Source: an uncultured Candidatus Saccharibacteria bacterium (GTDB lineage: Bacteria; Patescibacteriota; Minisyncoccia; Phycocordibacterales; CAIZLB01). Taken from it: DNA of 39,701 bases. The stretch is from positions 1 to 39,701 of the forward strand of contig CAZHNC010000001.1 in NCBI GenBank assembly GCA_964532765.1. Reading direction: 5' to 3'. This document shows, one piece after another, positions 5,769 through 39,701 of this stretch. Position numbers and translations under genes: made by a program. The notes beneath the pieces were generated by a model. That model searched no databases. It saw only the letters and a list, made by a program, of their open reading frames with translations, and was not told the DNA's origin. Numbering within the stretch: the first letter of the stretch is position 1; every line of letters starts with the position of its first letter.

Positions 5769-5818
5769 CTTAAAACCTCCGTTTATCCTCTCGAAATTTC
5801 TCCCAAGAAAATGTATTT

Positions 5819-5874
5819 AGTACTAACTAGTACTATTATAAGACTAGTATAATCTATATTACATAAAAATGCAA
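5819..5874 (-). promoter_or_regulatory. Promoter of the scaffold/capsid operon with a 16-bp palindromic motif
   Basis: Coding strand TTGCAT-17-TATACT overlaps TGTAAT-17-TATAAT (-10 at 5835..5840). AGTACTAGTTAGTACT (5819..5834) follows directly. Confidence 0.5.
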
Positions 5875-9193: not shown

Positions 9194-9214
9194 AATCTCA
9201 ACCCCTTTATTTTA

Positions 9215-9243
9215 ATTATAGTACTAATTAGTAATAAATTCAA
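9215..9243 (-). promoter_or_regulatory. Promoter of the 422-aa/gp7-like unit with the palindromic motif in the spacer
   Basis: Coding strand TTGAAT-17-TATAAT. ATTACTAATTAGTACT (9220..9235) overlaps the spacer and the -10. Confidence 0.5.
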
Positions 9244-9265
9244 ATAAAAAAGAGTAGAAATTAAT

Positions 9266-9397
9266 CTAGTCAAATATAAACTTAACTGTTAGCATAAATA
9301 AGCTATAAATCCATAAGCTTGTTATTGTCACAAATAAAATTTTTATACTTGGGTAGAATAGTTTACTGTTGTAGAATAATAGCCATAGTTTTTTCAT
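9266..9397 (-). CDS. Small hydrophobic protein (43 aa)
   Basis: Hand-translated MKKLWLLFYNSKLFYPSIKILFVTITSLWIYSLFMLTVKFIFD. Below the track cutoff. Confidence 0.35.
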   Translation of the reverse strand: MKKLWLLFYNSKLFYPSIKILFVTITSLWIYSLFMLTVKFIFD

Positions 9398-9532
9398 TAT
9401 ATCACACCTTGAAATTTACTGTCTGCATCATATGTATCTTTTATTTTTTTCATAAAAAGCACACTCCTCATTGTTAGTTAATAATTGTTTTTAATTCATT
9501 GTTAATAATCATTCTTATTAGATTCTACTTTG

Positions 9533-9612
9533 CTAGAGAGGGGGTCTAAAGCAAACTAGAGAGGGGGTGTCTACTAAAGTAGAGAGGCTACTAGAGCAAA
9601 CTAGAGAGGGTC
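9533..9612. repeat. Four iteron-like direct repeats (22-23 bp period)
   Basis: CTAGAGAGGGGGT at 9533 and 9556 (identical), GTAGAGAGGC at 9579, CTAGAGAGGGTC at 9601. A G-rich patch in an AT-rich genome that ends 3 nt from the RepA_N-like stop codon. Confidence 0.8.
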
Positions 9613-9614
9613 TT

Positions 9615-9977
9615 TTATTCTTCAACTAAATATGCTATATATATAAGTGTAGAAGAATCATACTGATGTTTCCTTTCTATCAGTGCTTTTTTCTCTAATA
9701 AATCAAGTGCATTAGATATTGGGGTATTAGTAACATTTAACTTGTCCTTTAGCTCGGTATAAGTGTATTTTACATATACCCCTTTATCATCATAATAACC
9801 ATTTTTAGCAGATAATTTACCCCTATCAAATAACAACACATAAATTTTAAAAGCTGTTTCAGTAATTTCTTTTCTCATAAACATATCAAATACAAGCTTC
9901 TGAACTTGATAATAAATAAATCCATGACCTTCTAAATCTTCAAATACTTCTTTAGTAAAATAATAGTGTTTTATCAT
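9615..9977 (-). CDS. RepA_N-like winged-helix protein (120 aa)
   Basis: AFKIYVLLFDRGKLSAKNGYYDDKGVYVKYTYTELKDKLNVTNTPISNALDLLEKKALIERK follows the RepA_N pattern (AK.lY.LL.DR..LS.kNgw.De.G.vY...t..EL). Confidence 0.65.
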   Translation of the reverse strand: MIKHYYFTKEVFEDLEGHGFIYYQVQKLVFDMFMRKEITETAFKIYVLLFDRGKLSAKNGYYDDKGVYVKYTYTELKDKLNVTNTPISNALDLLEKKALIERKHQYDSSTLIYIAYLVEE

Positions 9978-9980
9978 TCA

Positions 9981-10109
9981 TCAATTACTCTCCTCTATTT
10001 CAATCGTTATTCTTTCCCCTTTCTCAAGATTTAATTTTTCCATTACATCTTTAGGAATAACTACTCCAATACTTGCACCTACAGTTACTAATTTTAATGT
10101 TAATTTCAT
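9981..10109 (-). CDS. AbrB/SpoVT/MazE-type small DNA-binding protein (42 aa)
   Basis: Hand-translated MKLTLKLVTVGASIGVVIPKDVMEKLNLEKGERITIEIEESN behind the RBS GGAGGT. The V/IPKD...L.L..GD/E motif is present. Confidence 0.6.
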   Translation of the reverse strand: MKLTLKLVTVGASIGVVIPKDVMEKLNLEKGERITIEIEESN

Positions 10110-10135
10110 GTATTACCTCCTTTTTATTATAATTA

Positions 10136-10164
10136 ATTATAACTCTTTATAAATAAAAAGTCAA
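10136..10164 (-). promoter_or_regulatory. Near-consensus promoter of the AbrB-like/RepA_N-like unit
   Basis: Coding strand TTGACT-17-TATAAT. Confidence 0.6.
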
Positions 10165-10169
10165 CTAAA

Positions 10170-10197
10170 TAAAAAAGAGCAGTAATTAAACTACTCT
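10170..10197 (-). terminator. Intrinsic terminator after the 525-aa gene
   Basis: AGAGUAGU pairs with ACUGCUCU (one G-U pair). T6 follows on the coding strand. Confidence 0.55.
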
Positions 10198-10206
10198 TAG
10201 TGTAAA

Positions 10207-11784
10207 TTAATTTATAGTTTTTGTAACAACTTGTTCCCCTGTATATTGTCCACCTATTTGGTCATCCCAAACTAAATGATACTCTATTTCACTTCCTTGA
10301 GTAAGTTTTGAACTATCTATGTTCCATTCAAAATAGTATCTTTCTTTACCATCGAATATTAGCATAGATTTAAATTCTCCTATAGATGTTCTAATTACTA
10401 CAAAAGGTAGTCTTACTAGTTCCCATGACATAGCTTCTAAGTCTAAATATACTTTAGTTAATAAAGGAGTAGAAATTGATATATCATCAACACCATTTAA
10501 TCTTAAATATGGCTTCCACGGAATAGGTGCTTCTGGAACTACAGGAACAAATTTTAATATTTCAATTAATGTTTTTGAACTTCCATCAGGGTCGAGAAAG
10601 TAAATAAATTCTCCATCAGTATCGCTTATGTGATATGAAGCTGAATATCTTTCTAATAAATCTATGTTATCAACTCTTACTGCTATACCACGGCTTCCAC
10701 AATTAACAATAATAGAATCTTTTTCAGTTATACCCAGTATGTTTAACTCTAAAAGTTGTCTTGCTCCTGTAGGCACACCATCATCTTTATAAATTGATTT
10801 TGGAATTAAAGGCAAATTAGGCTCAATCCAAGGTTTCCAATCTCCATTATACATTTGCAATGTGTGCCTTCTTCCACTTCTTATATCTAAAGCCTCAAGT
10901 ATTTTATAGTTTTGGCTAGTATCGAAAACATTTACATAGAAATCATTATCTCCTACATTGTATCCAGTTGGCAAATTATCTGTCATTCCAAAACATCTAT
11001 ATAAACCACTTTTATCAAAGAAAGTTTGGAAATTTTTTGTTTTATCTTTGAATTTACCTATAAGATTATCTGTGAAATAATCTGAAAATTTACCTTGACC
11101 AGTAAACAATTGGTCATACACATCATAATCCCAATAATTTAACCATCTCCAGCATAAAGTAGTTCCTTTAAAAATATTACCACTACCAAATTTTACACCA
11201 AATTTACCATCAGGATATCCATCATCTACGTTATGTGTTATGTATGCAGATGCTCCCCAACTGCTATAAATAAAATCAAATTTAATTGGGTTTATGACAT
11301 CACTATCATGGTTTACAAACTCTATAGTGTCTTTATTCACTGTTAGATTTTTGTAGTCATCACCATACCAAGTTAAGCATGTTTGGATTGATTTATCATT
11401 TATAGTATTATTATTAAACCAAAGGATAATTGGCTTTTCATCTGTTGGGTCATCTTGAATAACATAGGAATACTCTCTTATTATATTTTTATCACTATAA
11501 ACTACAGGGTTAGTATTTCCAGTACACCCATATGAAGCGTTTATTTCACTTCTTATAAGAGATTTATCCTCTCCTACAGCATGCTTAATATTTAGATTAT
11601 ATTCCCTCAAATCTAAATAATTAGCGTCAACCCATTCTCCAGTTGACCTTAGGTATCTTCCTTGAGGAGAATCTTCTACACCTTGATTGTATTCTCCATT
11701 ATCAGATAAAAATTTTGTACCTTTCCCATCAAATATGAAATATATACCTCTATTTTTACAGCTTATCTTTTTTTTATTTTTCAT
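10207..11784 (-). CDS. Hypothetical protein (525 aa), W/Y/D/N/G-rich, function unknown
   Basis: ORF track. Second gene of a promoter/terminator-bounded two-gene cassette. No family recognised. Confidence 0.6.
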   Translation of the reverse strand: MKNKKKISCKNRGIYFIFDGKGTKFLSDNGEYNQGVEDSPQGRYLRSTGEWVDANYLDLREYNLNIKHAVGEDKSLIRSEINASYGCTGNTNPVVYSDKNIIREYSYVIQDDPTDEKPIILWFNNNTINDKSIQTCLTWYGDDYKNLTVNKDTIEFVNHDSDVINPIKFDFIYSSWGASAYITHNVDDGYPDGKFGVKFGSGNIFKGTTLCWRWLNYWDYDVYDQLFTGQGKFSDYFTDNLIGKFKDKTKNFQTFFDKSGLYRCFGMTDNLPTGYNVGDNDFYVNVFDTSQNYKILEALDIRSGRRHTLQMYNGDWKPWIEPNLPLIPKSIYKDDGVPTGARQLLELNILGITEKDSIIVNCGSRGIAVRVDNIDLLERYSASYHISDTDGEFIYFLDPDGSSKTLIEILKFVPVVPEAPIPWKPYLRLNGVDDISISTPLLTKVYLDLEAMSWELVRLPFVVIRTSIGEFKSMLIFDGKERYYFEWNIDSSKLTQGSEIEYHLVWDDQIGGQYTGEQVVTKTIN

Positions 11785-11796
11785 ATAGCACCTCCA

Positions 11797-12246
11797 TTAA
11801 GCTTCAAAAGTTTGAACTAAATCAGAATCATATTTTATCATTCTTGTATCTCTAAACTCAATACTCAATGTATAAGTTCTGCTTGATAAAGTAGAAAAAT
11901 CCATTGGAGACAAAATATAATATCCAGTTTCATCTTTTTCAACGTCCAAACTAATCCAACCACCACTGTAATCAATAGTTATAGTAGCTTTATCAAATAA
12001 ACTCTGATTTTGTATAGCTAAAGTAATATTTATCCTTTCATTTTCTGCTTTCTTAGGTAAAAAACTTGCATTAAAACTAGTTATAATTGGATAAGAAAAG
12101 TTTGTTCCTGGACTTATTCCACCTTCAATTACTTGTACACAAGCCATCGCTATTAGTGTGGTTGTTGCTAACTCGCTTGTTTCTAACCCTAGAATCTTCA
12201 TCGCTGCCATTCGTTCAAGTGTACTTGTTGCTACATTATTATCCAT
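11797..12246 (-). CDS. Hypothetical protein (149 aa)
   Basis: ORF track, trimmed to the ATG at 12246, which is properly spaced from the GGGGG RBS. Confidence 0.55.
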   Translation of the reverse strand: MDNNVATSTLERMAAMKILGLETSELATTTLIAMACVQVIEGGISPGTNFSYPIITSFNASFLPKKAENERINITLAIQNQSLFDKATITIDYSGGWISLDVEKDETGYYILSPMDFSTLSSRTYTLSIEFRDTRMIKYDSDLVQTFEA

Positions 12247-12275
12247 ACATACCATACCCCCTTTTTTATATCTTA

Positions 12276-12304
12276 ATTATATAACTAATATATAATAAAA
12301 TCAA
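12276..12304 (-). promoter_or_regulatory. Candidate promoter of the 149-aa/525-aa cassette
   Basis: Coding strand TTGATT-17-TATAAT. Confidence 0.45.
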
Positions 12305-12323
12305 TTGACTAAATAAAGTAAAT

Positions 12324-12346
12324 AAAAAAAGACTAGTTTCCTAGTC
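12324..12346 (-). terminator. Intrinsic terminator ending the small-gene operon
   Basis: GACTAG-GAAA-CTAGTC hairpin followed by T7 on the coding strand. Confidence 0.65.
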
Positions 12347-18703: not shown

Positions 18704-18743
18704 ATTTACCACATTCTTTCATATATTTGACCTCCATCAATTT

Positions 18744-18788
18744 ATTACTAACTAGTACTATTCTACTCTAAAAATAATTTTTTATCAA
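18744..18788 (-). promoter_or_regulatory. Promoter of the terS-terL-portal unit with the palindromic motif
   Basis: Coding strand TTGATA-17-TAGAAT, immediately followed by AGTACTAGTTAGTAAT (18744..18759). Confidence 0.55.
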
Positions 18789-25530: not shown

Positions 25531-26235
25531 CTATACATTCCATATTGGAATTGATTTTTGTTTTGATGTAGTTGTAAATTGTTGTTTTATTTCTTTAGGA
25601 AAAATACCTTTATATCCTTTTGCTATAGAAAAATCTATACTATCGGTAAGATGTTTTTCATCAATATAATCTTTTCCTAATTGATTTAATGTTTTTGTTA
25701 TGCTCAACATAGTTTTAACTGGATTTTTTATTTCTTCTTTATAATCAAACCATTCTTTGAAACTTTCTTTTAAAAATTCAGATAAATTTAGCTTTTCAAG
25801 TTCTTCTGAGAATAATTGTTTATTAAGTTGTTTATTTTTACTTTTTTTATTAATACTTTCTTTATTACTTGAAAAATTTTGAATACTAGTATTTAATTTT
25901 TTTAAAGGCAAGTCTTTAAAATTTTTAAATACTAGTCTTTGAATAGTTTCATAATCAATTTTAAAATATCTTTTCCTAGGCATACCTTTATTTTGTTGAT
26001 ATAAAGCTCCAATTTCTATTAATTGATTAATACATAAAGTTTGCTTATTATTACTTAATCCTGTTAATTCTTCTAAAGTTTCAGAAGTTTGATAAAACCA
26101 ACCTTCTTCATCTGCCATCATGCTTTCTGCTTCTGATAAATTACTTAATAAAAAAGCAGTTTCGATTCCAAATTCTTTGACTATAGACTTATTCAAAACC
26201 CAATAACCACTAGACATTAAAAGTTCTTTAATCAA
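25531..26235 (-). CDS. Replisome organizer / DnaD-like replication initiation protein
   Basis: N-terminal winged-helix-like region (ETLEELTGLSNNKQTLCINQLIEIGAL). The C-terminus ...WFDYK...DSIDFSIAKGYKGIF resembles the conserved phage C-terminal Phg_2220_C-type domain. Confidence 0.55.
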   Translation of the reverse strand: MIKELLMSSGYWVLNKSIVKEFGIETAFLLSNLSEAESMMADEEGWFYQTSETLEELTGLSNNKQTLCINQLIEIGALYQQNKGMPRKRYFKIDYETIQRLVFKNFKDLPLKKLNTSIQNFSSNKESINKKSKNKQLNKQLFSEELEKLNLSEFLKESFKEWFDYKEEIKNPVKTMLSITKTLNQLGKDYIDEKHLTDSIDFSIAKGYKGIFPKEIKQQFTTTSKQKSIPIWNV

Positions 26236-26824: not shown

Positions 26825-27358
26825 TTATTTACCGTAGTTTCTTAAAACTGCTGCTTCTATACAAAATCTGATAGTTTGGATCGTGTATCTTTGACCGTTT
26901 GTTTCAAAATCATGTACTAGCATATCTTTTGCTATTTTGAATTTAGTTTCTCCTTTTTCCACAAGTGCTTTAGTTAAATCTTTGGCATAGTCTACAGCTC
27001 CACCTATGATACTATCTTGAGTTAGAACTAATTTTCTAAGTTGGTCAACATTTTGAATTTCTAAGAGCAATTCATTCCAATGTGGTAAATCCTCATCATA
27101 AATATGTAATTCTGGATTCATTACCTCAATTTCTGATAAAACTTCTTGAGCTGTCAAATTAGGTTTCTCTCTTGAGATATCCTCGAACTCTTCGATTGAA
27201 TGCACAAGGTTATTTACTTTCTCTTGTATCTCCTGGATAATATCCCCTTTTTCATTAGAAAACAATCCCAATAAGAATTCTAAAAACTTCTTGCTCTCAA
27301 ATCTGAAAAACTTAAACTTTGTTAAAAATGTTAAAACTTTCTGTAAAAATCTACCCAT
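26825..27358 (-). CDS. Hypothetical protein (177 aa) next to the switch region
   Basis: ORF track. Own promoter carrying the palindromic motif. No family recognised. Confidence 0.55.
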   Translation of the reverse strand: MGRFLQKVLTFLTKFKFFRFESKKFLEFLLGLFSNEKGDIIQEIQEKVNNLVHSIEEFEDISREKPNLTAQEVLSEIEVMNPELHIYDEDLPHWNELLLEIQNVDQLRKLVLTQDSIIGGAVDYAKDLTKALVEKGETKFKIAKDMLVHDFETNGQRYTIQTIRFCIEAAVLRNYGK

Positions 27359-27382
27359 ATTAAAACCTCCTGTATTTTATTT

Positions 27383-27427
27383 ACTACTAACTAGTAATAG
27401 TTTACCATTGTTTTTATTAAATTTCAA
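27383..27427 (-). promoter_or_regulatory. Promoter of the 177-aa unit with the palindromic motif
   Basis: Coding strand TTGAAA-17-TAAACT, immediately followed by ATTACTAGTTAGTAGT (27383..27398). Confidence 0.5.
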
Positions 27428-27430
27428 ATA

Positions 27431-27643
27431 TTAGTCTTTTATAAAAATAAAATCATCTGTAATTAAAATACCTTCTTTTTCTTCAATTGATACGCTCCTT
27501 ATATTATGATTATTATTTGAATTTTTAGTTTTAAAAACGATTACATATATATTTAAAAGTTCAAAATTATATTTTTCTATTGATGTATAGTGTATAATTG
27601 GTTTTCCTAACTTTTCCAACTCTTTAATTTCATCTTCTAACAT
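27431..27643 (-). CDS. Hypothetical protein (70 aa)
   Basis: ORF track, trimmed to the ATG at 27643 (GGGGGAAATAATATG), directly after the AbrB-like gene. Confidence 0.45.
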   Translation of the reverse strand: MLEDEIKELEKLGKPIIHYTSIEKYNFELLNIYVIVFKTKNSNNNHNIRSVSIEEKEGILITDDFIFIKD

Positions 27644-27644
27644 A

Positions 27645-27806
27645 TTATTTCCCCCTATCCAACAAAATTTTCTCTCCATCAAATACAAAAGTTAATTTAT
27701 CCTTATCTTTTATATTACACATTCTAGCAATGTCTTTTGGTATGTTTAAAACTAACTGACCTTTTTTGCTTAATTGTTGAACTGTTGATGTTTTTTCTAT
27801 GTTCAT
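27645..27806 (-). CDS. AbrB/SpoVT-type small DNA-binding protein (53 aa), first leftward gene of the switch
   Basis: Hand-translated MNIEKTSTVQQLSKKGQLVLNIPKDIARMCNIKDKDKLTFVFDGEKILLDRGK. RBS AAGGAG. Carries the IPKD motif seen in the 9981..10109 paralogue. Confidence 0.55.
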   Translation of the reverse strand: MNIEKTSTVQQLSKKGQLVLNIPKDIARMCNIKDKDKLTFVFDGEKILLDRGK

Positions 27807-27827
27807 TATATCAACTCCTTTTTATAA

Positions 27828-27911
27828 ATATTAACACAAAAAAAATAATTTGTCAATATTCAAAAAAATATTAAAATTAATATTGACATTAACTATTTTT
27901 AGGTATATAAT
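27828..27911. promoter_or_regulatory. Divergent back-to-back promoters with operator-like symmetry (genetic switch)
   Basis: Rightward TTGACA(27883..27888)-17-TATAAT(27906..27911). Leftward TTGACA(rc 27851..27856)-17-TAATAT(rc 27828..27833). Inverted repeat TGTCAATATT/AATATTGACA. AATATT boxes at 27855, 27867 and 27879. Confidence 0.7.
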
Positions 27912-27940
27912 CTAATTAACAAATACATAGGAGGTCAACT

Positions 27941-28174
27941 ATGAGAATAAATTTAGAGGTATTTTTAACAGAAAGAGAAATTGCTAAAAAAACAGGAAAT
28001 ACAAACTTTTTAACTTGGTTAGATTTTCAAATTGAAAAGTATTTAATGCAAGAGGAAATAAAAGTAGCTAAACGTAACAAATTAGCTGAAATAGAGTTTT
28101 TATTAGGAGATTCAAGTATTCCTAAAGATATTTTGTTAAATGCTAAAAATGAGATTATAGGAGGTTTGATATGA
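27941..28174 (+). CDS. First rightward early gene (77 aa), possible Cro-like regulator
   Basis: ORF track. RBS AGGAGGT. LTEREIAKKTGNTNFLTWL could be a helix-turn-helix. Call is mainly positional. Confidence 0.35.
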   Translation: MRINLEVFLTEREIAKKTGNTNFLTWLDFQIEKYLMQEEIKVAKRNKLAEIEFLLGDSSIPKDILLNAKNEIIGGLI

Positions 28175-28815
28175 TATATAAAAAGTTGTTAGCTGTACAA
28201 AAAGAAATAAAAGGTCTTGGAAAAGATGCAACAAGTGGTTCTGGCAATTTTGGATATAAATATGTAACTGGGTCAAAAGTTTTAGAAGCTATAAAGCCAA
28301 TACTTAACGAACAAGGTTTAATATTAAAGCAAGAAATTGTTAAAGTTGAAAATGAAAGAATTGATTATACTACTAAAAACGGAAGTAAATCAGAAATGTT
28401 ATATAAAGTTTGGCAAAAATTTACGTGGATTGATACAGAAACAGGAGAAAAAGACGAAAACGAATTTTATGCAGCAGGTCAAAACGATTGGGAAAAAGGT
28501 TTAGGAAGTGCTTTAACTTATGCTGAAAGGTATTTTTTATTAAAATATTTCCACATAGCTACTGATGAAGATGATATAGATAACTCTGAAAGAAAAGCAG
28601 AAGAGCAAAAGAAATCAATTGCAGAAGAAAACAAAAGAAAAGATGCAGCAATTAAATTTATAACCGAATTTGTAGGAAATGACATGGATAAATTTGAAAA
28701 AGTTTTAGCACACATGAATAAAACTTTTAATAGTAATCACAAAGGATTCAACACATTTAATTTAGAAGAACTTGAAGGATATAATGAAGCTTTAAAAAAG
28801 AAAGGTGGTAAATGA
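28171..28815 (+). CDS. erf: ERF-family single-strand annealing recombinase
   Basis: KKLLAVQKEIKGLGKDA...FGYKYVTGSKVLEAIKPILNEQGL...GSALTYAERYFLLKYFHIATDEDDID is the typical ERF pattern. Confidence 0.85.
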   Translation: MIYKKLLAVQKEIKGLGKDATSGSGNFGYKYVTGSKVLEAIKPILNEQGLILKQEIVKVENERIDYTTKNGSKSEMLYKVWQKFTWIDTETGEKDENEFYAAGQNDWEKGLGSALTYAERYFLLKYFHIATDEDDIDNSERKAEEQKKSIAEENKRKDAAIKFITEFVGNDMDKFEKVLAHMNKTFNSNHKGFNTFNLEELEGYNEALKKKGGK

Positions 28816-29225
28816 TGGCTGTATTTAGTTTAAAAAATAGTTTTGTCAATAAAGTAGAAGAAAAAAATGGATTTATTAAAGCTAATCTTTCTGATAGTAG
28901 AAAGAAAGCTGATGGTACTTGGGAAAGTTTCCAATGGTTAGGTTGCTCGATTATGTGGAATGCTAAATCTGTGGAGATTAAAGAAGGTGACAAGATTAAT
29001 GCAGAAGGTATAATTTATCAAGAAAAGTATCAAGATAAATGGTTTACAAAAGTAGTTATATTTGGAATATCAATAGAAGGCCACAAAGGAGAAACTAAAA
29101 CAGAAGCACCTAAAAAGTCAAATAAAATTAAAATGAATGATGTTAAAGTGGATTTACCTAAATCTGAATTACCTGATATACAATTTGATGATGATGACGA
29201 GTTTGACAAAATATTTGGTCAATAA
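28812..29225 (+). CDS. ssb: Single-stranded DNA-binding protein-like (OB-fold with acidic tail)
   Basis: Follows erf. Acidic C-terminal tail DIQFDDDDEFDKIF. Size fits a short SSB. Confidence 0.55.
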   Translation: MMAVFSLKNSFVNKVEEKNGFIKANLSDSRKKADGTWESFQWLGCSIMWNAKSVEIKEGDKINAEGIIYQEKYQDKWFTKVVIFGISIEGHKGETKTEAPKKSNKIKMNDVKVDLPKSELPDIQFDDDDEFDKIFGQ

Positions 29226-29273
29226 TACAGTTTGCTAGTTCTATTAAAAAACTAGCTAAAATTGGAGGTCAAT

Positions 29274-29735
29274 ATGAAATTATACGAGTTGCAAGTTATG
29301 AATAATCAATTACTAGAATTACTTGAAAAAGAAGAAATAACTCAAGAAGATTATGAAGATAACAAACAAATGTTAGTTGAATTATTAGAAGATAAATCTG
29401 AAAGTTTAGTTTTTGTAAATATGGAATTTGATTCTGAAATTAACAGGTTAAAAGAAGTTGAAAAAATGTTAGTTGAAAAAAGAAAAAAACTTGAAGCTAA
29501 ACAAGAAAAATTTAAAGAATTTGTTTTAAATACACTTGATTCTTTAGGAATTGAAAAAGTTAAAACTACAATTGGAGAAATAAAAATAACTAAATCAACA
29601 AGCACTATTGTAGATGAAAGTAAACTAGGAAACAACTGTTTTGATTATATCCCTAAAAGAAAAACTATAAAAGAAATTGAAGCACTTGGATATGAATTAG
29701 AAAAACAAACAAATAGAAAAATAACAATAAAATAA
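29274..29735 (+). CDS. Siphovirus Gp157-like protein
   Basis: MKLYELQVMNNQLLELLEKEE N-terminus and ~153-aa size, located in an Erf/SSB module. Trimmed to the ATG at 29274 behind GGAGGT. Confidence 0.55.
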   Translation: MKLYELQVMNNQLLELLEKEEITQEDYEDNKQMLVELLEDKSESLVFVNMEFDSEINRLKEVEKMLVEKRKKLEAKQEKFKEFVLNTLDSLGIEKVKTTIGEIKITKSTSTIVDESKLGNNCFDYIPKRKTIKEIEALGYELEKQTNRKITIK

Positions 29736-29749
29736 CTGGAGGTCAACAA

Positions 29750-30682
29750 ATGAGAAAAGCAAGTCACGAGAAAACACTTCACTACACAATAGGAGAAGCA
29801 GGAGGGCAAATAGGGGAAATATTCAAACAGAATAAATATGATGTTATAGCTTATAATACAGCTAAAGCTGATATGGATAAGTTAAAACAAATTACTGATA
29901 AAAGACTTATAGGAATCACAGAAGGAAGTGGAAAAGATAGAAAACTTTCTGCAAAATCTTTTGAGGATAACATAGATAAAATAAGAACTTCTGTTACACA
30001 AGATATGTCAAACAAGGAAGTTGCTTTTGTTTATACTTCTATGAGTGGTGGTACAGGAAGTGGATCCGCAATAAGACTAGCTAAACTGATTAACCAATTA
30101 GGTAAAAAAGCTATCATAGTTGCTGTAAAGCCTGTCAATGGAGAAATAGGAAAAGCTGAAAATAACTATTTGCAATTTTTAGCTGAATTTGAAAAAGATA
30201 AAAATGATCTAGTGTTAAATATGTTTGAGAATGAATTTGATTATGTAAAAATTAACAAGTACATCTATGAAACAATTGATAATTTCTTAAATCCTGTAGG
30301 AGAAAGTATCACAACTTTTGACTTTATGGACTCTTTAAAAGCTTTTAGAAGTGGTTATTGTGTAATGGCTACTGGAAACACTAAAGAAATTATAATAAAC
30401 TCAATGTTTGAATTAAACAAGTCTGAAACTTGTGTGTTAATCTCTCAAAGCCCACAATCTGTAGATGGATACCAAGAAATGACAAAGAGAAATTACGGTT
30501 ACCTGGATAGACAATACTACGAATACAGAGTTCAAGAAAATCCTAAGTGGACTATATTGATTGGTGGTTTACAGTTACCAGTTGAAACTATTTCAGTTTT
30601 AGCAAAAGAAGTTAATCAGAAAGCACAATTGCTTAATGCTAAAAAAGATGCTTTAACTTTCAACATTTTAGGTATAGATTAA
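29750..30682 (+). CDS. Tubulin/FtsZ-superfamily GTPase (PhuZ/TubZ-like, 310 aa)
   Basis: Loops in canonical order: T1 TIGEAGGQIGEIF, AYNTAKAD, T3 GITEGSGKD, T4 SMSGGTGSGS (fits the tubulin signature [SAG]GGTG[SA]G), T5 VKPVNGE, T7 TFDFMD...GYCVMATG. Confidence 0.85.
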   Translation: MRKASHEKTLHYTIGEAGGQIGEIFKQNKYDVIAYNTAKADMDKLKQITDKRLIGITEGSGKDRKLSAKSFEDNIDKIRTSVTQDMSNKEVAFVYTSMSGGTGSGSAIRLAKLINQLGKKAIIVAVKPVNGEIGKAENNYLQFLAEFEKDKNDLVLNMFENEFDYVKINKYIYETIDNFLNPVGESITTFDFMDSLKAFRSGYCVMATGNTKEIIINSMFELNKSETCVLISQSPQSVDGYQEMTKRNYGYLDRQYYEYRVQENPKWTILIGGLQLPVETISVLAKEVNQKAQLLNAKKDALTFNILGID

Positions 30683-30691
30683 GGAGTATAT

Positions 30692-31177
30692 ATGAAACAC
30701 CTACTAATATTTTTAATTTTATCAATTTCGTGTTTAGCTGAAACTTTTAGTTTTGGCTATTCACTTAATACAACTCATATAAAGTCGCCTAGTCGTGATT
30801 ATGACTTTGTAGAGGATAATCAAGTATTTACACTAGAGAAACGCAATGGAAGCGAAATAAAAGGTTTTACGCACTTTACAAACAGTTTTGGAAATGAAAG
30901 TGCAATGATATACATAGGACAAATTAAAGATAAGAATAATAAATGTTTGTATTTTAAATACTCTTTTGGATTGTGTAAAGGTTATAATGAAGTTGATAAA
31001 TTACCGAGCAAAACTATTAAAAATATGTATTGGGAGTTTAGAAATTATACTGTATTTTATAAAGATTATTCAATAGTTCCAATGGTTTCAGTAGGTTATC
31101 AATTCAGCAAGGATTTAGCATTAGAAACACTTTTAGTAGGAAATGCTTTTGTTACTAATATTAAAATAACTTTTTAG
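30692..31177 (+). CDS. Small secreted outer-membrane beta-barrel candidate (161 aa)
   Basis: Signal peptide MKHLLIFLILSISCLA. C-terminal beta-signal FVTNIKITF with alternating hydrophobic residues and a terminal Phe. Mature size ~145 aa fits an 8-stranded barrel. Confidence 0.55.
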   Translation: MKHLLIFLILSISCLAETFSFGYSLNTTHIKSPSRDYDFVEDNQVFTLEKRNGSEIKGFTHFTNSFGNESAMIYIGQIKDKNNKCLYFKYSFGLCKGYNEVDKLPSKTIKNMYWEFRNYTVFYKDYSIVPMVSVGYQFSKDLALETLLVGNAFVTNIKITF

Positions 31178-31185
31178 GAGGAATA

Positions 31186-31335
31186 ATGGAAAATAGAAAA
31201 GCAAATGAAGAGTATACGAATGATGAACTTTTTAATTTTGTTAAAAGTGGAGAAATACCTCGCGGAGTTTTTCAAGTTATGAAGAAAAGAGCTTCGTTGA
31301 ATAGATTAAAATTTGTATGGGTATTGAAAGTATGA
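31186..31335 (+). CDS. Hypothetical protein (49 aa)
   Basis: Hand-translated MENRKANEEYTNDELFNFVKSGEIPRGVFQVMKKRASLNRLKFVWVLKV. RBS AGGAGG. ATGA overlap with the next gene. Confidence 0.4.
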   Translation: MENRKANEEYTNDELFNFVKSGEIPRGVFQVMKKRASLNRLKFVWVLKV

Positions 31336-31814
31336 GAAATGAGAAAATACTTTTATCTATAGACCCTGGTAATGAATTTTCTGCATATTGTTTAATTGAT
31401 ATGAATACATATAAACCAATAAAATTTGGAAAAGTTACTAATCAAGAATTAAAAGATTATTTACAAAGCGAAGAATTTTCAGATATTTTCTCAAATAATT
31501 ATATGTATTTTTCAATAGAAATGATTGCATCTTATGGAATGGCTGTAGGACAAACTGTATTTGAAACTTGTGTATGGATAGGTAGATTTATTGAAATAAT
31601 GTGTTGCACACATAAATTTATATACAGAAAAGATGTTAAAATAAATTTATGTGGCACTATGAAAGCAAAAGATACAAATATAAGACAAGCTTTAATTGAT
31701 AGGTTTGGAGAAGTTGGAACTAAAAAAAATCAAGGTTTCTTTTATGGATTTAAAGCTGATATATGGAGTGCATATGCTGTTGGAGTAACTTTTATAGATA
31801 CTTGTAAACACTAG
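31332..31814 (+). CDS. RuvC-like Holliday junction resolvase
   Basis: ILLSIDPGNEFSAYCLID, SIEMIASYG and ADIWSAYAVG match the acidic-residue motifs of phage RuvC-fold resolvases. Trimmed to the ATG at 31332. Confidence 0.65.
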   Translation: MRNEKILLSIDPGNEFSAYCLIDMNTYKPIKFGKVTNQELKDYLQSEEFSDIFSNNYMYFSIEMIASYGMAVGQTVFETCVWIGRFIEIMCCTHKFIYRKDVKINLCGTMKAKDTNIRQALIDRFGEVGTKKNQGFFYGFKADIWSAYAVGVTFIDTCKH

Positions 31815-31840
31815 AATAGAAATAATAGTGTAGGAAATAT

Positions 31841-31866
31841 AAAAGGGCAATTAAGCCCTTTTTAAA
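31841..31866. terminator. Bidirectional terminator between convergent operons
   Basis: AAAGGGC (31842..31848) pairs with GCCCTTT (31855..31861), with T/A runs on both sides. Confidence 0.65.
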
Positions 31867-32245
31867 TTTTTAATAATTCAATTCTAAGTTTTTTAGCATT
31901 TTCTTCTAATTCTATTAGTTTATTTCTATCAAAATCAGTACCTATTCCTATATTTATATTTCTATTAGGTCTTATAGATTGCAAATCAATTTTATCTAAT
32001 TCATTTAAAATTTGTTGTTTTTTATTTTCTTTTTCATATATCATTTTTTGTTCTTCTAAAATTTTGTTTTCTATTTCTGACCATTCTTGAATAGTTTTAA
32101 TTTCCCAATTTTCACCATTCCATTTAGCTCTTTCTAGTTTTTTATCGAATATAGGCTCTTTAGTATCTATAGAACCTTCAAAGTTGTTGTAAGTAGGTTC
32201 AATAAAGAATCCTTGGCTATCAGTTTGCATATATAATTTACTCAT
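31862..32245 (-). CDS. Hypothetical protein (127 aa), possible tail fibre assembly/chaperone by position
   Basis: Lies directly downstream of the tail fibre gene. Coiled-coil C-terminus. Call by position only. Confidence 0.3.
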   Translation of the reverse strand: MSKLYMQTDSQGFFIEPTYNNFEGSIDTKEPIFDKKLERAKWNGENWEIKTIQEWSEIENKILEEQKMIYEKENKKQQILNELDKIDLQSIRPNRNINIGIGTDFDRNKLIELEENAKKLRIELLKI

Positions 32246-32261
32246 AATTTCCTCCTTTTTT

Positions 32262-33107
32262 TTATTTATACCAACGACCTAATATAGTTGCTTGCACTCT
32301 ATTTGCTAAAGTGCTTTGAGAAATAAATCTAGCATTTAAATCAGAAGCTCCACCGTATGTATAATAATTGTAGTCGTTTAGTGCCGAAGGCTCTATAGAT
32401 ATTGTAGGTTGTGTTTTTTCGATTGGAACTATAAATCCAGTCCCTAGACATAATATAAGTTTAACAGTATTTGCAGTATAACCACTAGAACTCATCCCAG
32501 TAGAAATAAAAGTTCCATCATATCTCATAACAAAACTATTCCATTCATCTGTGTAACCAGTACATTTACCACCTATAATATCCCATCTAGTTGCACTAAC
32601 TTTTTTAATTCTCCAAAAATCGCTATCAGTATTTAGATATATTTGAGTTAATAAACTAGTAGTAAATTTTTCGTTTGTATCAGATAATGTTATATTAACT
32701 TGCCCTGTTGTACCAGTCTTTCTAATTTCATATATATATCCAATTGGTTTTGATGCAGGGATAACTACTGGTGCTCCTCCATTGTTTCCTACTACATTTA
32801 TAATAGTTCCTATAACTTCTTGCACAAAAGCTGATGTAGCTATACTAGTATCGTTATCTCCAAAAGTAGGAGTAGGAGCTTGTGGATTTCCTGTAAATGC
32901 AGGACTATCTAAATTAGCTTTATTATTTTCTAAAGTAGTTACCCTTGCTTTAACTCCTGTAATTGGTGTATCTAAATCACCGATAATATTATTTATATTT
33001 TCCTCATGACTTTCTAAAATACTCGGCAATTTTTCTTTAAAAGCCGTTTCCCCTGTTTTCCCATTCAAAGGGTCTTTGAAATAATTAATATCTGCTGTAT
33101 TATTCAT
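32262..33107 (-). CDS. Tail fibre / receptor-binding protein
   Basis: LDSPAFTGNPQAPTPTFGDNDTSIATSAFVQ is the conserved phage tail-fibre motif (SP.FTG.P.APT....D.S..iAT..FV). Confidence 0.75.
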   Translation of the reverse strand: MNNTADINYFKDPLNGKTGETAFKEKLPSILESHEENINNIIGDLDTPITGVKARVTTLENNKANLDSPAFTGNPQAPTPTFGDNDTSIATSAFVQEVIGTIINVVGNNGGAPVVIPASKPIGYIYEIRKTGTTGQVNITLSDTNEKFTTSLLTQIYLNTDSDFWRIKKVSATRWDIIGGKCTGYTDEWNSFVMRYDGTFISTGMSSSGYTANTVKLILCLGTGFIVPIEKTQPTISIEPSALNDYNYYTYGGASDLNARFISQSTLANRVQATILGRWYK

Positions 33108-37652: not shown

Positions 37653-39701
37653 TAGTAAGACCTCCTTGCGTTTCCTGTTTGATTAAATCTACTTTGATTT
37701 TGACTAGTTGCCACCATTTCGCTAAAATCTTTTGAGTAGTTGTTCTCAATTCTATATATAGTTTGATAAGTTTGGCCGTAACTTGCATTACTAGATTGAA
37801 ACTCTGCACTAGCTACTTTTAATCCAGTAGGTAAATTTTTTGTTGAAACTTGGTTTAGTTGTTCAGTTGCTGAACTTGCTGCAAGTCCTAATCGTTCTAA
37901 AATTTCTTGTAATTTTTCGCTAGAGGCTCCATAAATTTCGGTATAAGCTGCCAACATTTCTTCAAAACTCATACCTTTAAAATCTATTCCTAAATTAATT
38001 CCTTCAGTTGTTAATTCGTTTAGCAAAGCTTCAGATATTGCACCACTAAAGTTTTTATTAAGAGCTTCAAAGGCTTGTTGGCTAAAGAAAGCTTCTATCA
38101 AACCATTTTTAAACATATCTGTAACACTTTCAGATATACTTCCACCACTTTTAAATACATCTACCATGTTAGAAATAAAGTCTTGACTAGATAGACTTAA
38201 AGCTTCTGCAAACCCATCAATATTTGTCTGCCATGCTTCAGCAATCAATTTATTTATTTCTGCCATAGCTCCAGTTACATCATAACCACTTATATATGAC
38301 TTTTCTTTACCCCAGTCTGACAAATCTCTGTAAGTTTCTCTTTTTGCGTATTTACCAAAGATTGCGTCAACATCAATACCACTATAACCACCACCAGCAA
38401 GAGCTTTTTTAATCGCTGTAGTGTCGACTGTTGCGTTTTTAGAACCCCAAGAAACACTACCACCACCAAGTATACCACTTATTATGTCGAAAGGTGCAGT
38501 TAATAGACCTTGATTAAGTCCACCACCTCCAACACCACCAGCCATTAGATCACTTGGTTTTGTTAATTGTGCGAAAGATATCTTTTGTCCTAAAGTAAAA
38601 TCTTCAACTGACTTTTTGAAACTTTCAACAGCTTCTTGGAATTTAGTATTAGCTTCATTTTGCTTTTCTTCCATGTCACTATCATTTAAAAAACTATCTA
38701 ATTGATTAACTAAAGCTAAACCACTTGAAATACTCCCTAAAACATTTCCACTCATTAAGCTTGTAGCTAGGTTTCCACCAGCACCAATTAAACTTGCCAT
38801 AGCTCCTAGAAGGTCATCTTCAAATAATGTTGCTAACTCTCCAGCTATTTTAGAAGTTTCAGAAAATGCATCGCCAACTTTAGCTATTTTTTTTCTGTTT
38901 TCTTCTTGAATCCTTTGAGCTTCTTCGTTTGTTTTTTTAATGTTTTCTAATTCTTTGTTATTTTTTTCTTCCTGTAGTTTTATTTCTTTTTCTTTAGCTT
39001 CGTTTTCTTTATCTTGTTTTTTCTTTAGATTGTCCTCAAACTTTTGTTGTTGTCTTTTTTCAAAGTTATCGTAATCTTGCATAGCCTTTTCAAATCCAGC
39101 TTCTAATACTACATTAGTTTCTAAATCTGTAACAGTTGTTCCACCTGTACCAGTTGAGCTACTTCCTCCTGTACCTGTGCCTTTATTATTGTTTATATCG
39201 TTTACCCATTCATTATCTGTGAAAACTTTAAAATCTCCACTTTTACGCAAATCATTTAATAAAGTATCTTGATTTCCTGTATCTAGTCCTAAAGTTCCAA
39301 AAGTCATATTATAAGTTTTACTTGCTGCCGTTCCAGCTTCTTTATAACTTCCGCCTTTTTCAAGTATACTTCTAGCCGTTCCAAGTGCTGCAGTAACTGA
39401 AATTTGTTTTTTAACTTCTATACTCATTCCTTTTGTAAACTTTACATAAAAACTTAAAGTATCAAATAAATCTTGTCCTATTTCTGATTTTGTCTGTCTA
39501 CTAGAATTTATTAATTCTTTAAAACTTCCTTTAATTCCATCTGTAATATTTTCAATACTAGTTGCAGTTGTTTCTAAAGGTTTTTCTATTCCTAAAGCCC
39601 AATTTCCAACTTTTTCAAATATTCCACTAAACTGTTCAAAACCATTGGCTATATTAGTTAATGATTCTCCAAAAGTATCTACGTAACCTAGTGTTACAAA
39701 C
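37652..39701 (-). CDS. Tail tape measure protein, C-terminal part (continuation of 1..914)
   Basis: The frame of the tracked ORF 37652..39427 stays open upstream to 39701 (...FVTLGYVDTFGESLTNIANGF...KGMSIEVKKQ). Contains a coiled-coil K/E-rich centre and Gly-rich tracts. Confidence 0.9.
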   Translation of the reverse strand, partial: FVTLGYVDTFGESLTNIANGFEQFSGIFEKVGNWALGIEKPLETTATSIENITDGIKGSFKELINSSRQTKSEIGQDLFDTLSFYVKFTKGMSIEVKKQISVTAALGTARSILEKGGSYKEAGTAASKTYNMTFGTLGLDTGNQDTLLNDLRKSGDFKVFTDNEWVNDINNNKGTGTGGSSSTGTGGTTVTDLETNVVLEAGFEKAMQDYDNFEKRQQQKFEDNLKKKQDKENEAKEKEIKLQEEKNNKELENIKKTNEEAQRIQEENRKKIAKVGDAFSETSKIAGELATLFEDDLLGAMASLIGAGGNLATSLMSGNVLGSISSGLALVNQLDSFLNDSDMEEKQNEANTKFQEAVESFKKSVEDFTLGQKISFAQLTKPSDLMAGGVGGGGLNQGLLTAPFDIISGILGGGSVSWGSKNATVDTTAIKKALAGGGYSGIDVDAIFGKYAKRETYRDLSDWGKEKSYISGYDVTGAMAEINKLIAEAWQTNIDGFAEALSLSSQDFISNMVDVFKSGGSISESVTDMFKNGLIEAFFSQQAFEALNKNFSGAISEALLNELTTEGINLGIDFKGMSFEEMLAAYTEIYGASSEKLQEILERLGLAASSATEQLNQVSTKNLPTGLKVASAEFQSSNASYGQTYQTIYRIENNYSKDFSEMVATSQNQSRFNQTGNARRSY

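Follow-up and report, generated by a model that had tools for sequence, protein, structure and literature searches.

The known tubulins of phages are PhuZ, found in nucleus-forming phages with genomes larger than 200 kb, and TubZ, encoded by the 186-kb plasmid prophage c-st (PMC3678025, PMC10299810). In PhuZ the C-terminal tail is extended and bears an acidic "knuckle" by which it binds the neighboring subunit (PMC3678025). In type III partition systems, the gene for the winged-helix protein TubR lies beside tubZ, normally just upstream in the same operon, and a centromere composed of direct or inverted repeats is located upstream (PMC7762940). The TubZ proteins of plasmids have long, often basic tails (PMC7762940), and c-st TubZ, which works with TubR, a centromere and TubY, ends in a C-terminal tail of ~40 residues (PMC7762940, PMC3678025). 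The actin-like AlpC and its adaptor AlpA were reported to be necessary for efficient viral DNA replication and transport in the Corynebacterium prophage CGP3 (PMC4446434, PMC5539076), which is integrated (PMC8026635). Here, we describe a tubulin gene in the early operon of a much smaller phage. It lies at positions 29750..30682 (plus strand) of the 39,701-nucleotide contig CAZHNC010000001.1 (GenBank assembly GCA_964532765.1; the whole stretch is hereafter called the window) and encodes a TubZ-like GTPase of 310 amino acids (aa), as indicated by profile, structure and motif evidence.

A first-pass annotation, made from the sequence letters, had proposed a tubulin/FtsZ-superfamily GTPase at exactly this open reading frame (ORF) and had suggested profile searches and structure prediction as checks. 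Both were run, and both returned significant similarity to tubulin and FtsZ. The ORF matches the Pfam family PF00091 (Tubulin) with E = 4.2e-11 and 43.9 bits, above the gathering cut-off of 33, and its homologues carry the same domain. The match to PHROG 4733 ("tubulin PhuZ"; 2.8e-11) is confined to residues 5-195. In phmmer searches of the PDB the top match is c-st TubZ (4xcq; 1.3e-7), with CetZ and FtsZ next. The AlphaFold2 model, computed from a 63-sequence alignment (pLDDT 89.1, pTM 0.89), has a two-domain fold comprising a Rossmann-like GTPase domain, helix H7 and an activation domain that contains the acidic residues of loop T7. Its elements follow the canonical order (S1-H1 ... T4-H4 ... 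H7-T7-H8), with a four-stranded activation domain and a long terminal helix, H11 (residues 278-306). More than 1000 tubulin/FtsZ-family structures in the PDB were matched to the model by Foldseek, the first being c-st TubZ (E = 5e-18, TM 0.80/0.81, 310 columns), followed by CetZ, Bacillus TubZ and FtsZ; TM-scores to FtsZ, CetZ and TubZ structures lie between 0.65 and 0.77. The viral structure library yielded just ten matches, including PhuZ and some metagenomic "FtsZ" proteins.

Every loop motif listed by the annotation is where it had been placed, on invariant or nearly invariant columns of the family, and the loop assignments are correct. Loop T1 (residues 13-25) includes the glycine-rich GEAGGQIG (residues 15-22), and T4 carries SGGTGSG (residues 99-105), which fits the signature [SAG]-G-G-T-G-[SA]-G. 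Glycines G100, G101 and G103 are invariant in the 63 sequences. In alignments of 10-63 homologues the complete GGTGSG (100-105), N161, N169 and D191 are invariant, and D194, which forms the acidic pair of T7 with D191, is nearly so. The family columns that are invariant or near-invariant are G15, G18, N36, D41, G59, K62, G100-G101-T102-G103-S104-G105, P128, E132, N139, N161, N169, D191, D194 and G202. Judged from the alignments, placement of the motifs on conserved columns far exceeds chance. Across family members that share 26-72% identity, the elements linked to polymerization are all intact and invariant: loops T3 and T5, the acidic pair of T7 and the activation domain in full. Comparison of the window gene with the 72%-identical allele of a related phage (L001) points to purifying selection (dN = 0.22, dS = 1.05, dN/dS ~0.2). 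We rejected the idea of a decaying remnant because the catalytic residues are invariant and dN/dS is ~0.2.

The annotation had also noted a C-terminal tail. One is present, but it comprises merely ~10 residues with a conserved acidic/hydrophobic end, unlike the tail of TubZ-type proteins. Helix H11 reaches residue 306 of 310 in the model, and the protein ends in ...NILGID. Members of the family terminate ~10 residues past H11 with an acidic/hydrophobic motif (LGID, LDID, VEID, IEDIF or NLF), and the last 30 residues have a pI of 4.3-5.6 in nine of the ten clade members. No long or basic C-terminal tail was found in the window protein or in the clade, based on the model, the family alignment and the pI of the last 30 residues. 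With a score above the family threshold, the superfamily signature and the fold, the window protein is, by sequence and predicted structure, a member of the tubulin/FtsZ superfamily. We infer that it polymerizes in a GTP-dependent manner.

Within the superfamily, the sequence places the protein in the TubZ lineage. A family profile aligns with c-st TubZ over the full length (7e-26; 2-294 vs. 3-310). By contrast, its matches to FtsZ, CetZ and Bacillus TubZ/RepX are limited to the N-terminal domain (1e-15 to 1e-22; 1e-16 to 1e-22 for FtsZ and CetZ), and PhuZ of phage phiKZ (3zbp) scores 1.5e-7. The FtsZ equivalog model TIGR00065 gives 26.6 bits against a cut-off of 295.2. The nearest non-phage proteins, tubulins of 329 aa, share 32-33% identity with it over 96% of the length and are encoded on the 189-kb plasmid p3 of Cetobacterium somerae (NZ_CP143322.1) and on a contig of a Cetobacterium metagenome-assembled genome. 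A 90-aa winged-helix gene lies no more than 3 nt upstream of these tubulin genes and a divergent ParA operon adjoins them, a context that identifies a classical tubR-tubZ arrangement on Cetobacterium plasmids. In a neighbor-joining (distance) tree with 200 bootstraps, from which PhuZ and Bacillus TubZ references were left out, the short phage tubulins (305-318 aa) are monophyletic (94% bootstrap) and sister to the Cetobacterium plasmid tubulins (92%), and c-st TubZ falls in a neighboring TubR-linked group. Thus, among the relatives that had been named at first (PhuZ, TubZ and FtsZ), the protein is nearer to c-st TubZ, and to the Cetobacterium plasmid TubZ, than to PhuZ or FtsZ. On this sequence evidence, the phage clade descends from plasmid-partition TubZs, with loss of the adaptor, the centromere and the tail and with fixation among the early genes of the recombination operon in small phages.

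The clade is rare. Just five close relatives were found among 5.8 billion clustered proteins, and an exhaustive HMMER pass over 1.84 billion representatives gave 416 matches, only eight of them at E < 1e-30. The window tubulin has no tblastn match in 50,697 GenBank phage records; in the same records, a c-st TubZ query matched only large phages (c-st, D-1873, phage G and Proteus phage 10). The tubulin family found no match in a scan of 185,579 species genomes from GTDB, and scans of these genomes with TerL were likewise empty. A related element was found neither in these genomes nor among 72,556 plasmids (PLSDB). The IMG/VR scan with the close tubulin family returned nothing, and that with the broader family returned one 36-kb uncultivated virus genome. 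Searches of GenBank phages and plasmids with TerL and the major capsid protein gave distant matches only (≤33% identity). Logan contigs of ~40 kb and shorter (L005-L008) encode a 350-aa tubulin that is 30% identical to the window protein and stands for 261 sequences. Its gene forms a tubR-tubZ-like pair with an overlapping 88-aa upstream gene, and the element also carries a resolvase or integrase, a KAP NTPase, HU and choline-binding proteins; it is probably a Gram-positive plasmid or phage-plasmid.

We compared the tubulin locus in ten phage lineages (the window, L001, L019, L020, L021, L022, L023, L024, L030 and L031), the contigs being 35-39 kb wherever their length allows judgment. In all ten, tubulin comes after a single-strand-annealing recombinase, whatever its superfamily, within a phage contig's early operon. 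This recombinase is of the Erf type in the window, L023 and L024; L001 and L021 have RecT together with an exonuclease, and L030 and L031 have Rad52. A gene for a single-stranded DNA-binding protein (SSB) or Gp157 often sits between the recombinase and tubulin. In contigs long enough to judge, the tubulin operon is on the plus strand and divergent from a gene for a small helix-turn-helix or AbrB regulator. By pattern match, the operon promoter fits the consensus at 12 of 12 positions in the window and L001 and at 11 of 12 in L021 and L030. The operon runs on into lysozyme or M15 peptidase genes in L021-L024 and L030, with no plus-strand terminator-like site between tubulin and the lysis genes in L021 and L030, which were scanned for one. 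Because the operon continues into the lysis genes, expression is expected in lytic growth. No winged-helix gene or detected DNA-binding domain lies beside tubulin in any of the ten lineages.

An ORF of 43-63 aa follows tubulin in every lineage. In four lineages it measures 43-49 aa and carries a common C-terminal motif, KFV(W/F/R)V (window 31186-31335, L019 1057-1206, L001 11443-11574 and L023 5036-5170), and the remaining lineages have an unrelated-looking ORF of 45-63 aa at the same place. Speculatively, this small ORF is a candidate partner or modulator of the tubulin. The tubulins of the window and L001 are 72% identical, whereas non-homologous genes have taken the place of the resolvase and the recombination genes. 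In L019 (2-1017), the last 22 residues of Gp157 are 100% identical to those of the window and the adjoining tubulin is only 46% identical, a sequence pattern that indicates allelic replacement or very fast tubulin divergence within otherwise near-identical phages. The L020 tubulin (3-877; 62% identical) is split by a frameshift, with its N-terminal 59 residues in another frame, reflecting either a sequencing or assembly error or a pseudogene. A G+C-rich hairpin occupies the short spacer just upstream of tubulin in L030 (7959-7980) and L001 (9930-9960) and may be an attenuator or RNA-processing site; the window has no such spacer. Two genes past tubulin, the IMG/VR relative L024 carries a TnpB/IS605 OrfB-type gene (11214-12344; Cas12f1-like TNB and OrfB_IS605 domains).

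In the window, a perfect match to the sigma-70 promoter consensus (TTGACA-17-TATAAT, 27883..27911, plus strand) heads the early operon and a bidirectional intrinsic-terminator-like hairpin at 31841..31862 closes it, with no plus-strand terminator-like site before the operon's end. All of its genes are on the plus strand. The first ORF (27941..28174, 77 aa) has no family match and is weakly similar to the first ORF of L001. It is followed by an Erf-family single-strand annealing protein (28171..28815; PF04404, 3.3e-28; PHROG 2324/155), a 137-aa ORF (28812..29225) and a siphovirus Gp157/Gam-like end-protection protein (29262..29735; PF05565, 7.2e-13; PHROG 253). Of the Erf-SSB-Gp157 operon proposed at first, Erf and Gp157 are therefore borne out by profiles, but the SSB label is not: the 137-aa ORF, which has an acidic C-terminal end (...DDDDEFDKIFGQ), gave no Pfam, PHROG, NCBIfam or PDB match. 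The same slot holds true SSB genes in L022, L024 and L031. A gap of 14 nt separates the Gp157 stop codon from the tubulin gene, and a Shine-Dalgarno sequence (GGAGGT, 29738..29743, plus strand), read directly from the sequence, stands 6 nt before the ATG. Downstream of tubulin are a 161-aa protein that resembles outer-membrane proteins (OMP-like; 30692..31177), the 49-aa ORF ending in KFVWV (31186..31335) directly after it, and, as the last gene, a RuvC-like Holliday-junction resolvase (31317..31814; PHROG 1770, 1.5e-20).

The 161-aa protein has a signal peptide (MKHLLIFLILSISCLA), a C-terminal ...NIKITF and a weak match to PHROG 3600 (PagP-like; 9.4e-6), and PDB and plasmid searches returned nothing for it. 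From these sequence features it looks like a small outer-membrane beta-barrel, which implies a diderm host. Its copies in the window and L001 are 73% identical, which equals the conservation of tubulin (72%). We considered it as a tubulin partner and rejected it: the gene is present in the window, L001 and L020 and missing from L019, L021-L024, L030 and L031. Because it is present in three lineages and absent from seven, it is probably a moron. Upstream in the operon, shortly before Gp157, the SSB-like ORF (stop at 29225) has a 20-bp near-perfect palindrome (TTGACAAAATATTTGGTCAA, 29203-29222) across its 3' end. The palindrome overlaps a promoter-like TTGACA-17-TACAGT and might serve the operon as an internal operator or promoter.

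The annotation's remark that no TubR-like gene lies directly upstream of tubulin is borne out, and the negative extends to the entire window. Three TubR-like proteins of relatives (L013, L014 and L005) were searched against its 493 stop-to-stop ORFs with phmmer --max, and all E-values exceeded 0.7; a TubR elsewhere in the window was rejected on this basis. No centromere-like repeats, beyond short two-copy matches, were found near tubulin in the window (27300-32300) or in L001 (7400-12600). We therefore do not assign the system to the TubZRC partition systems, because the adjacent TubR, the upstream centromere and the C-terminal tail are all missing.

The attribution of the gene to a siphovirus-type phage of ~40 kb also held. 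A 987-codon minus-strand tape measure ORF is in frame over the junction of the window ends (1-917, 37655-39701), and the window is therefore a circularly closed, apparently complete genome of 39.7 kb cut inside the tape measure gene. A separate 35-kb contig from another run is identical in sequence. The identical phage is present in the samples SRR10083243, SRR10083299 and SRR10083291, and a literature search for the sample accessions gave no matches. Siphovirus-type genes include those for the small and large terminase, portal, major head protein, a weak major-tail match, tail fiber and endolysin. The genome also encodes a lambda-O-like initiator with internal iterons, a methyltransferase, a PAPS-reductase-like protein and an Ant anti-repressor. 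Nearly all genes are on the minus strand, the exception being the one plus-strand unit that holds tubulin. Pfam and PHROG family scans detected no integrase, transposase or CI-type repressor among the proteins of this closed genome, and no lysogeny module was found in the window. No chimallin-like protein was found in the window either; a 525-aa ORF, the sole large one that is neither assigned nor a tail gene, matches nothing in PDB, PHROG or Pfam and was rejected as a chimallin-like shell for that reason. The host is probably a member of the Fusobacteriota, given the Cetobacterium sister clade, the 29% G+C content and the OMP-like gene.

An iteron module noted at 9.5 kb does exist, but it belongs to a separate RepA_N cassette 20 kb from tubulin. 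This accessory cassette (9200-10217) is inserted between head genes. Its borders (9242-9292 and 10167-10217) are imperfect direct repeats of 51 nt that carry terminator-like hairpins. The cassette encodes a 120-aa protein (9615-9977, minus strand; Pfam 9e-9; PDB 4pta, 4e-7) consisting of just the N-terminal DNA-binding domain of RepA_N plasmid initiators, a 42-aa AbrB/SpoVT-like ORF (9981-10109, minus strand), and ORFs of 24 aa and 43 aa, the latter hydrophobic. The four iterons, CTAGAGAGGGG, are at 9533-9611 and occur nowhere else in the window; the only other iterons of the window are those inside the lambda-O-like gene. Judging from its sequence, the cassette could be a plasmid-type origin, an exclusion/incompatibility device or a toxin-antitoxin-like module.

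Set against the described systems, the window protein most resembles c-st TubZ (PDB 3v3t, 4xcq), its best match by sequence, profile and structure. The two are phage-encoded and share the two-domain fold, the long H11, GGTGSG and the acidic T7 pair. However, they are just ~20% identical, and the window has no TubR or nearby repeats, no TubY and a tail of ~10 residues only. The c-st genome is 186 kb rather than 40 kb, and its tubRZ operon is autoregulated, whereas the window gene is part of an early recombination operon. The Cetobacterium tubR-tubZ systems are the closest clade outside the phage group and similarly low in G+C, but their 329-aa tubulins have a longer tail, a winged-helix gene and a ParA operon, all of which were lost in the phage clade.

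PhuZ (201phi2-1, phiKZ and phiPA3) is likewise a phage tubulin of lytic growth without a TubR-type adaptor. Both it and the window protein have an acidic/hydrophobic C-terminal peptide after H11, and the DNA-positioning role proposed below would be analogous. PhuZ is nonetheless far more distant (TM 0.70 for PhuZ of phage Noxifer), its tail is longer than the very short terminal motif of the window protein, and it occurs in phages of >200 kb with a chimallin nucleus, in contrast to a 39.7-kb genome without any chimallin-like protein. FtsZ and CetZ share the N-terminal GTPase domain and the fold (TM 0.65-0.75), but the C-terminal domain of the window protein has no detectable sequence similarity to theirs, and it has no linker or membrane-anchor-binding peptide. 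The window protein would thus not count as a strict PhuZ, being distant and without jumbo-phage or chimallin context, and it is not an FtsZ. For a cytoskeleton that acts in phage DNA replication outside jumbo phages, the nearest functional precedent is AlpC, which differs in its actin fold and in its use of the DNA-binding adaptor AlpA and alpS sites.

Three roles had been left open by the first-pass annotation, namely segregation of an extrachromosomal prophage, positioning of replicating DNA and interference with host FtsZ. The comparative data favor the second. By analogy with the described systems, we put at roughly 0.45 the probability that the tubulin forms an adaptor-free cytomotive filament of the lytic cycle that positions or organizes replicating and recombining phage DNA. 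We favor this role because tubulin shares its transcription unit with recombination genes and, among the relatives, also with lysis genes; because TubR, a nearby centromere and a long tail are missing in all ten lineages; and because the iteron module at 9.5 kb is a separate cassette 20 kb away. A TubZ-lineage tubulin would have been recruited as a fixed early gene by siphophages of 35-40 kb, probably of Fusobacteriota. The strong early promoter would drive it together with the annealing protein, SSB, Gam-like protein and resolvase, which would act in recombination and replication restart. The tubulin would be made during lytic growth, a timing read from operon structure only, and would assemble into GTP-dependent cytomotive filaments with phage DNA as the cargo. 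Without a TubR/tubC adaptor, these filaments might position, spread or corral the replicating and recombining DNA, comparable to PhuZ and to AlpC of CGP3. The short acidic/hydrophobic C-terminal peptide could strengthen subunit contacts, like the PhuZ knuckle, or dock a small partner, for which the ORF of 43-63 aa found after tubulin in every lineage is a possible candidate.

Several points weigh against a lytic DNA-positioning filament. Ancestry, as reconstructed from the sequences, points to segregation, since the closest characterized relatives (c-st TubZ and plasmid tubRZ) are partition motors. The window has temperate or plasmid-like features (the Ant anti-repressor, the OMP-like moron, and the RepA_N-domain gene with its iterons), and its many unannotated ORFs could conceal a repressor or an unusual integrase. 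Neither a cargo nor an adaptor was identified for the window tubulin. The constant neighborhood may reflect conserved gene order in a mosaic phage group, not functional coupling to recombination. Moreover, the genomes of most relatives were seen in part, and the promoter and terminator calls are consensus pattern matches.

Some of these points carry over to the best-surviving alternative, a type III partition motor of an extrachromosomal plasmid prophage. Its adaptor and centromere would be non-canonical, such as the RepA_N winged-helix protein bound to the four iterons at 9533-9611. We consider this unlikely. Descent speaks for it: the nearest solved relative is a partition protein and the sister clade consists of tubR-tubZ genes on plasmids. 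The circularly closed genome with no detected integrase and the temperate-type accessories (Ant, the moron, the plasmid-type DNA-binding domain with adjacent iterons) are consistent with an extrachromosomal prophage, and the L019 tubulin, 46% identical beside a 100% identical flank, is what incompatibility-driven divergence would give. Yet no TubR homologue is encoded in the window, and none of the ten lineages has a detected DNA-binding-domain gene adjoining tubulin, although one of the small ORFs might encode a structurally divergent adaptor. There are no repeats near tubulin in the window or L001, the TubR-binding tail is missing, and the searched plasmids and species genomes contain no related element. 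The recombination operon, the consensus promoter and co-transcription with lysis genes in relatives are incompatible with expression in a lysogen, barring unseen internal regulation. The proposed adaptor itself sits 20 kb off in a cassette with its own terminator-like borders, and its iteron is found nowhere else.

A host-takeover factor that is expressed from the PL-like operon and caps or co-assembles with host FtsZ, blocking septation during infection, appears improbable. In lambda and P22, kil lies next to the recombination genes, and tubulin, with genes for the annealing, Gam-like and SSB proteins beside it, occupies a position like that of kil in lambdoid phages; early expression, judged from the promoter and operon structure, and the absence of a long C-terminal linker or anchor peptide would also fit. 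However, the protein is of the TubZ rather than the FtsZ lineage, as seen in its low FtsZ equivalog score, and its FtsZ matches are limited to the N-terminal domain at 14-18% identity. The T7 pair and the whole C-terminal domain are under purifying selection, which a simple capper would not need. We give as little credence to a GTPase without cytomotive function, serving as a nucleotide-dependent switch or scaffold for recombination proteins or as a conserved passenger gene: the lack of an adaptor, long tail or identified cargo, the otherwise mosaic neighborhood and the frameshifted copy in L020, by which the gene is possibly dispensable in some backgrounds, speak for it, but the polymerization-linked T3, T5, T7 pair and activation domain are intact over 26-72% identity, dN/dS is low, and tubulin was kept while its neighbors were exchanged.

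Beyond the favored lytic DNA-positioning filament, we tentatively raise the possibility of a third class of phage tubulins beside PhuZ and the c-st-type TubZ, a broader proposal in which we place less trust. Such a class would be a minimal, adaptor-free and tail-less TubZ derivative, a core early gene of lytic or non-integrating siphophages of 35-40 kb that works with recombination-dependent replication machinery. Its filament might, for example, spread, tether or clear space for concatemeric DNA.

Other features of the phage genome concern replication and regulation. A divergent 53-aa AbrB/MazE-fold protein (27645..27806, minus strand) is the first gene of the opposite early operon, which leads to the lambda-O-like initiator (25531-26235, minus strand). 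The initiator gene contains tandem repeats (25819-25940; periods of 15, 23 and 27 nt) that, by analogy with lambda, are probably the lytic origin. The sequence ATTTAnTACTAACTAGTAcTA, which holds the self-complementary TAGTACTA, is present in three copies (5815-5840, 18740-18765 and 27379-27404). Each copy is 20-50 nt before the first gene of a minus-strand block, respectively the 188-aa ORF after Ant, the small terminase and a 177-aa early ORF; from sequence and position, the repeat looks like a phage-specific promoter or dispersed operator.

We found no literature on tubulins in small phages or phage-plasmids, subscription-only papers being outside the scope of the search; phage tubulins are described there only for jumbo phages and c-st-type plasmid prophages. 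The short-tubulin clade of 35-40-kb phages is thus apparently undescribed, whereas the protein family and the idea of phage tubulins are already established. Comparison across the lineages puts the finding on a firmer and more testable footing than a single gene could. The clade documents how a plasmid partition motor probably became a lytic gene of phages, and compact polymerizing tags or tools may come from it. If the protein is a partition motor instead, it would represent a type III system with a new kind of adaptor. If the proposed lytic role is correct, a 310-aa protein in a 40-kb genome would provide a very small system for adaptor-free engagement of tubulin with DNA. Small phages, too, would then organize their DNA with a filament of their own, and a phage-encoded cytoskeleton would not be limited to jumbo phages and plasmid prophages.

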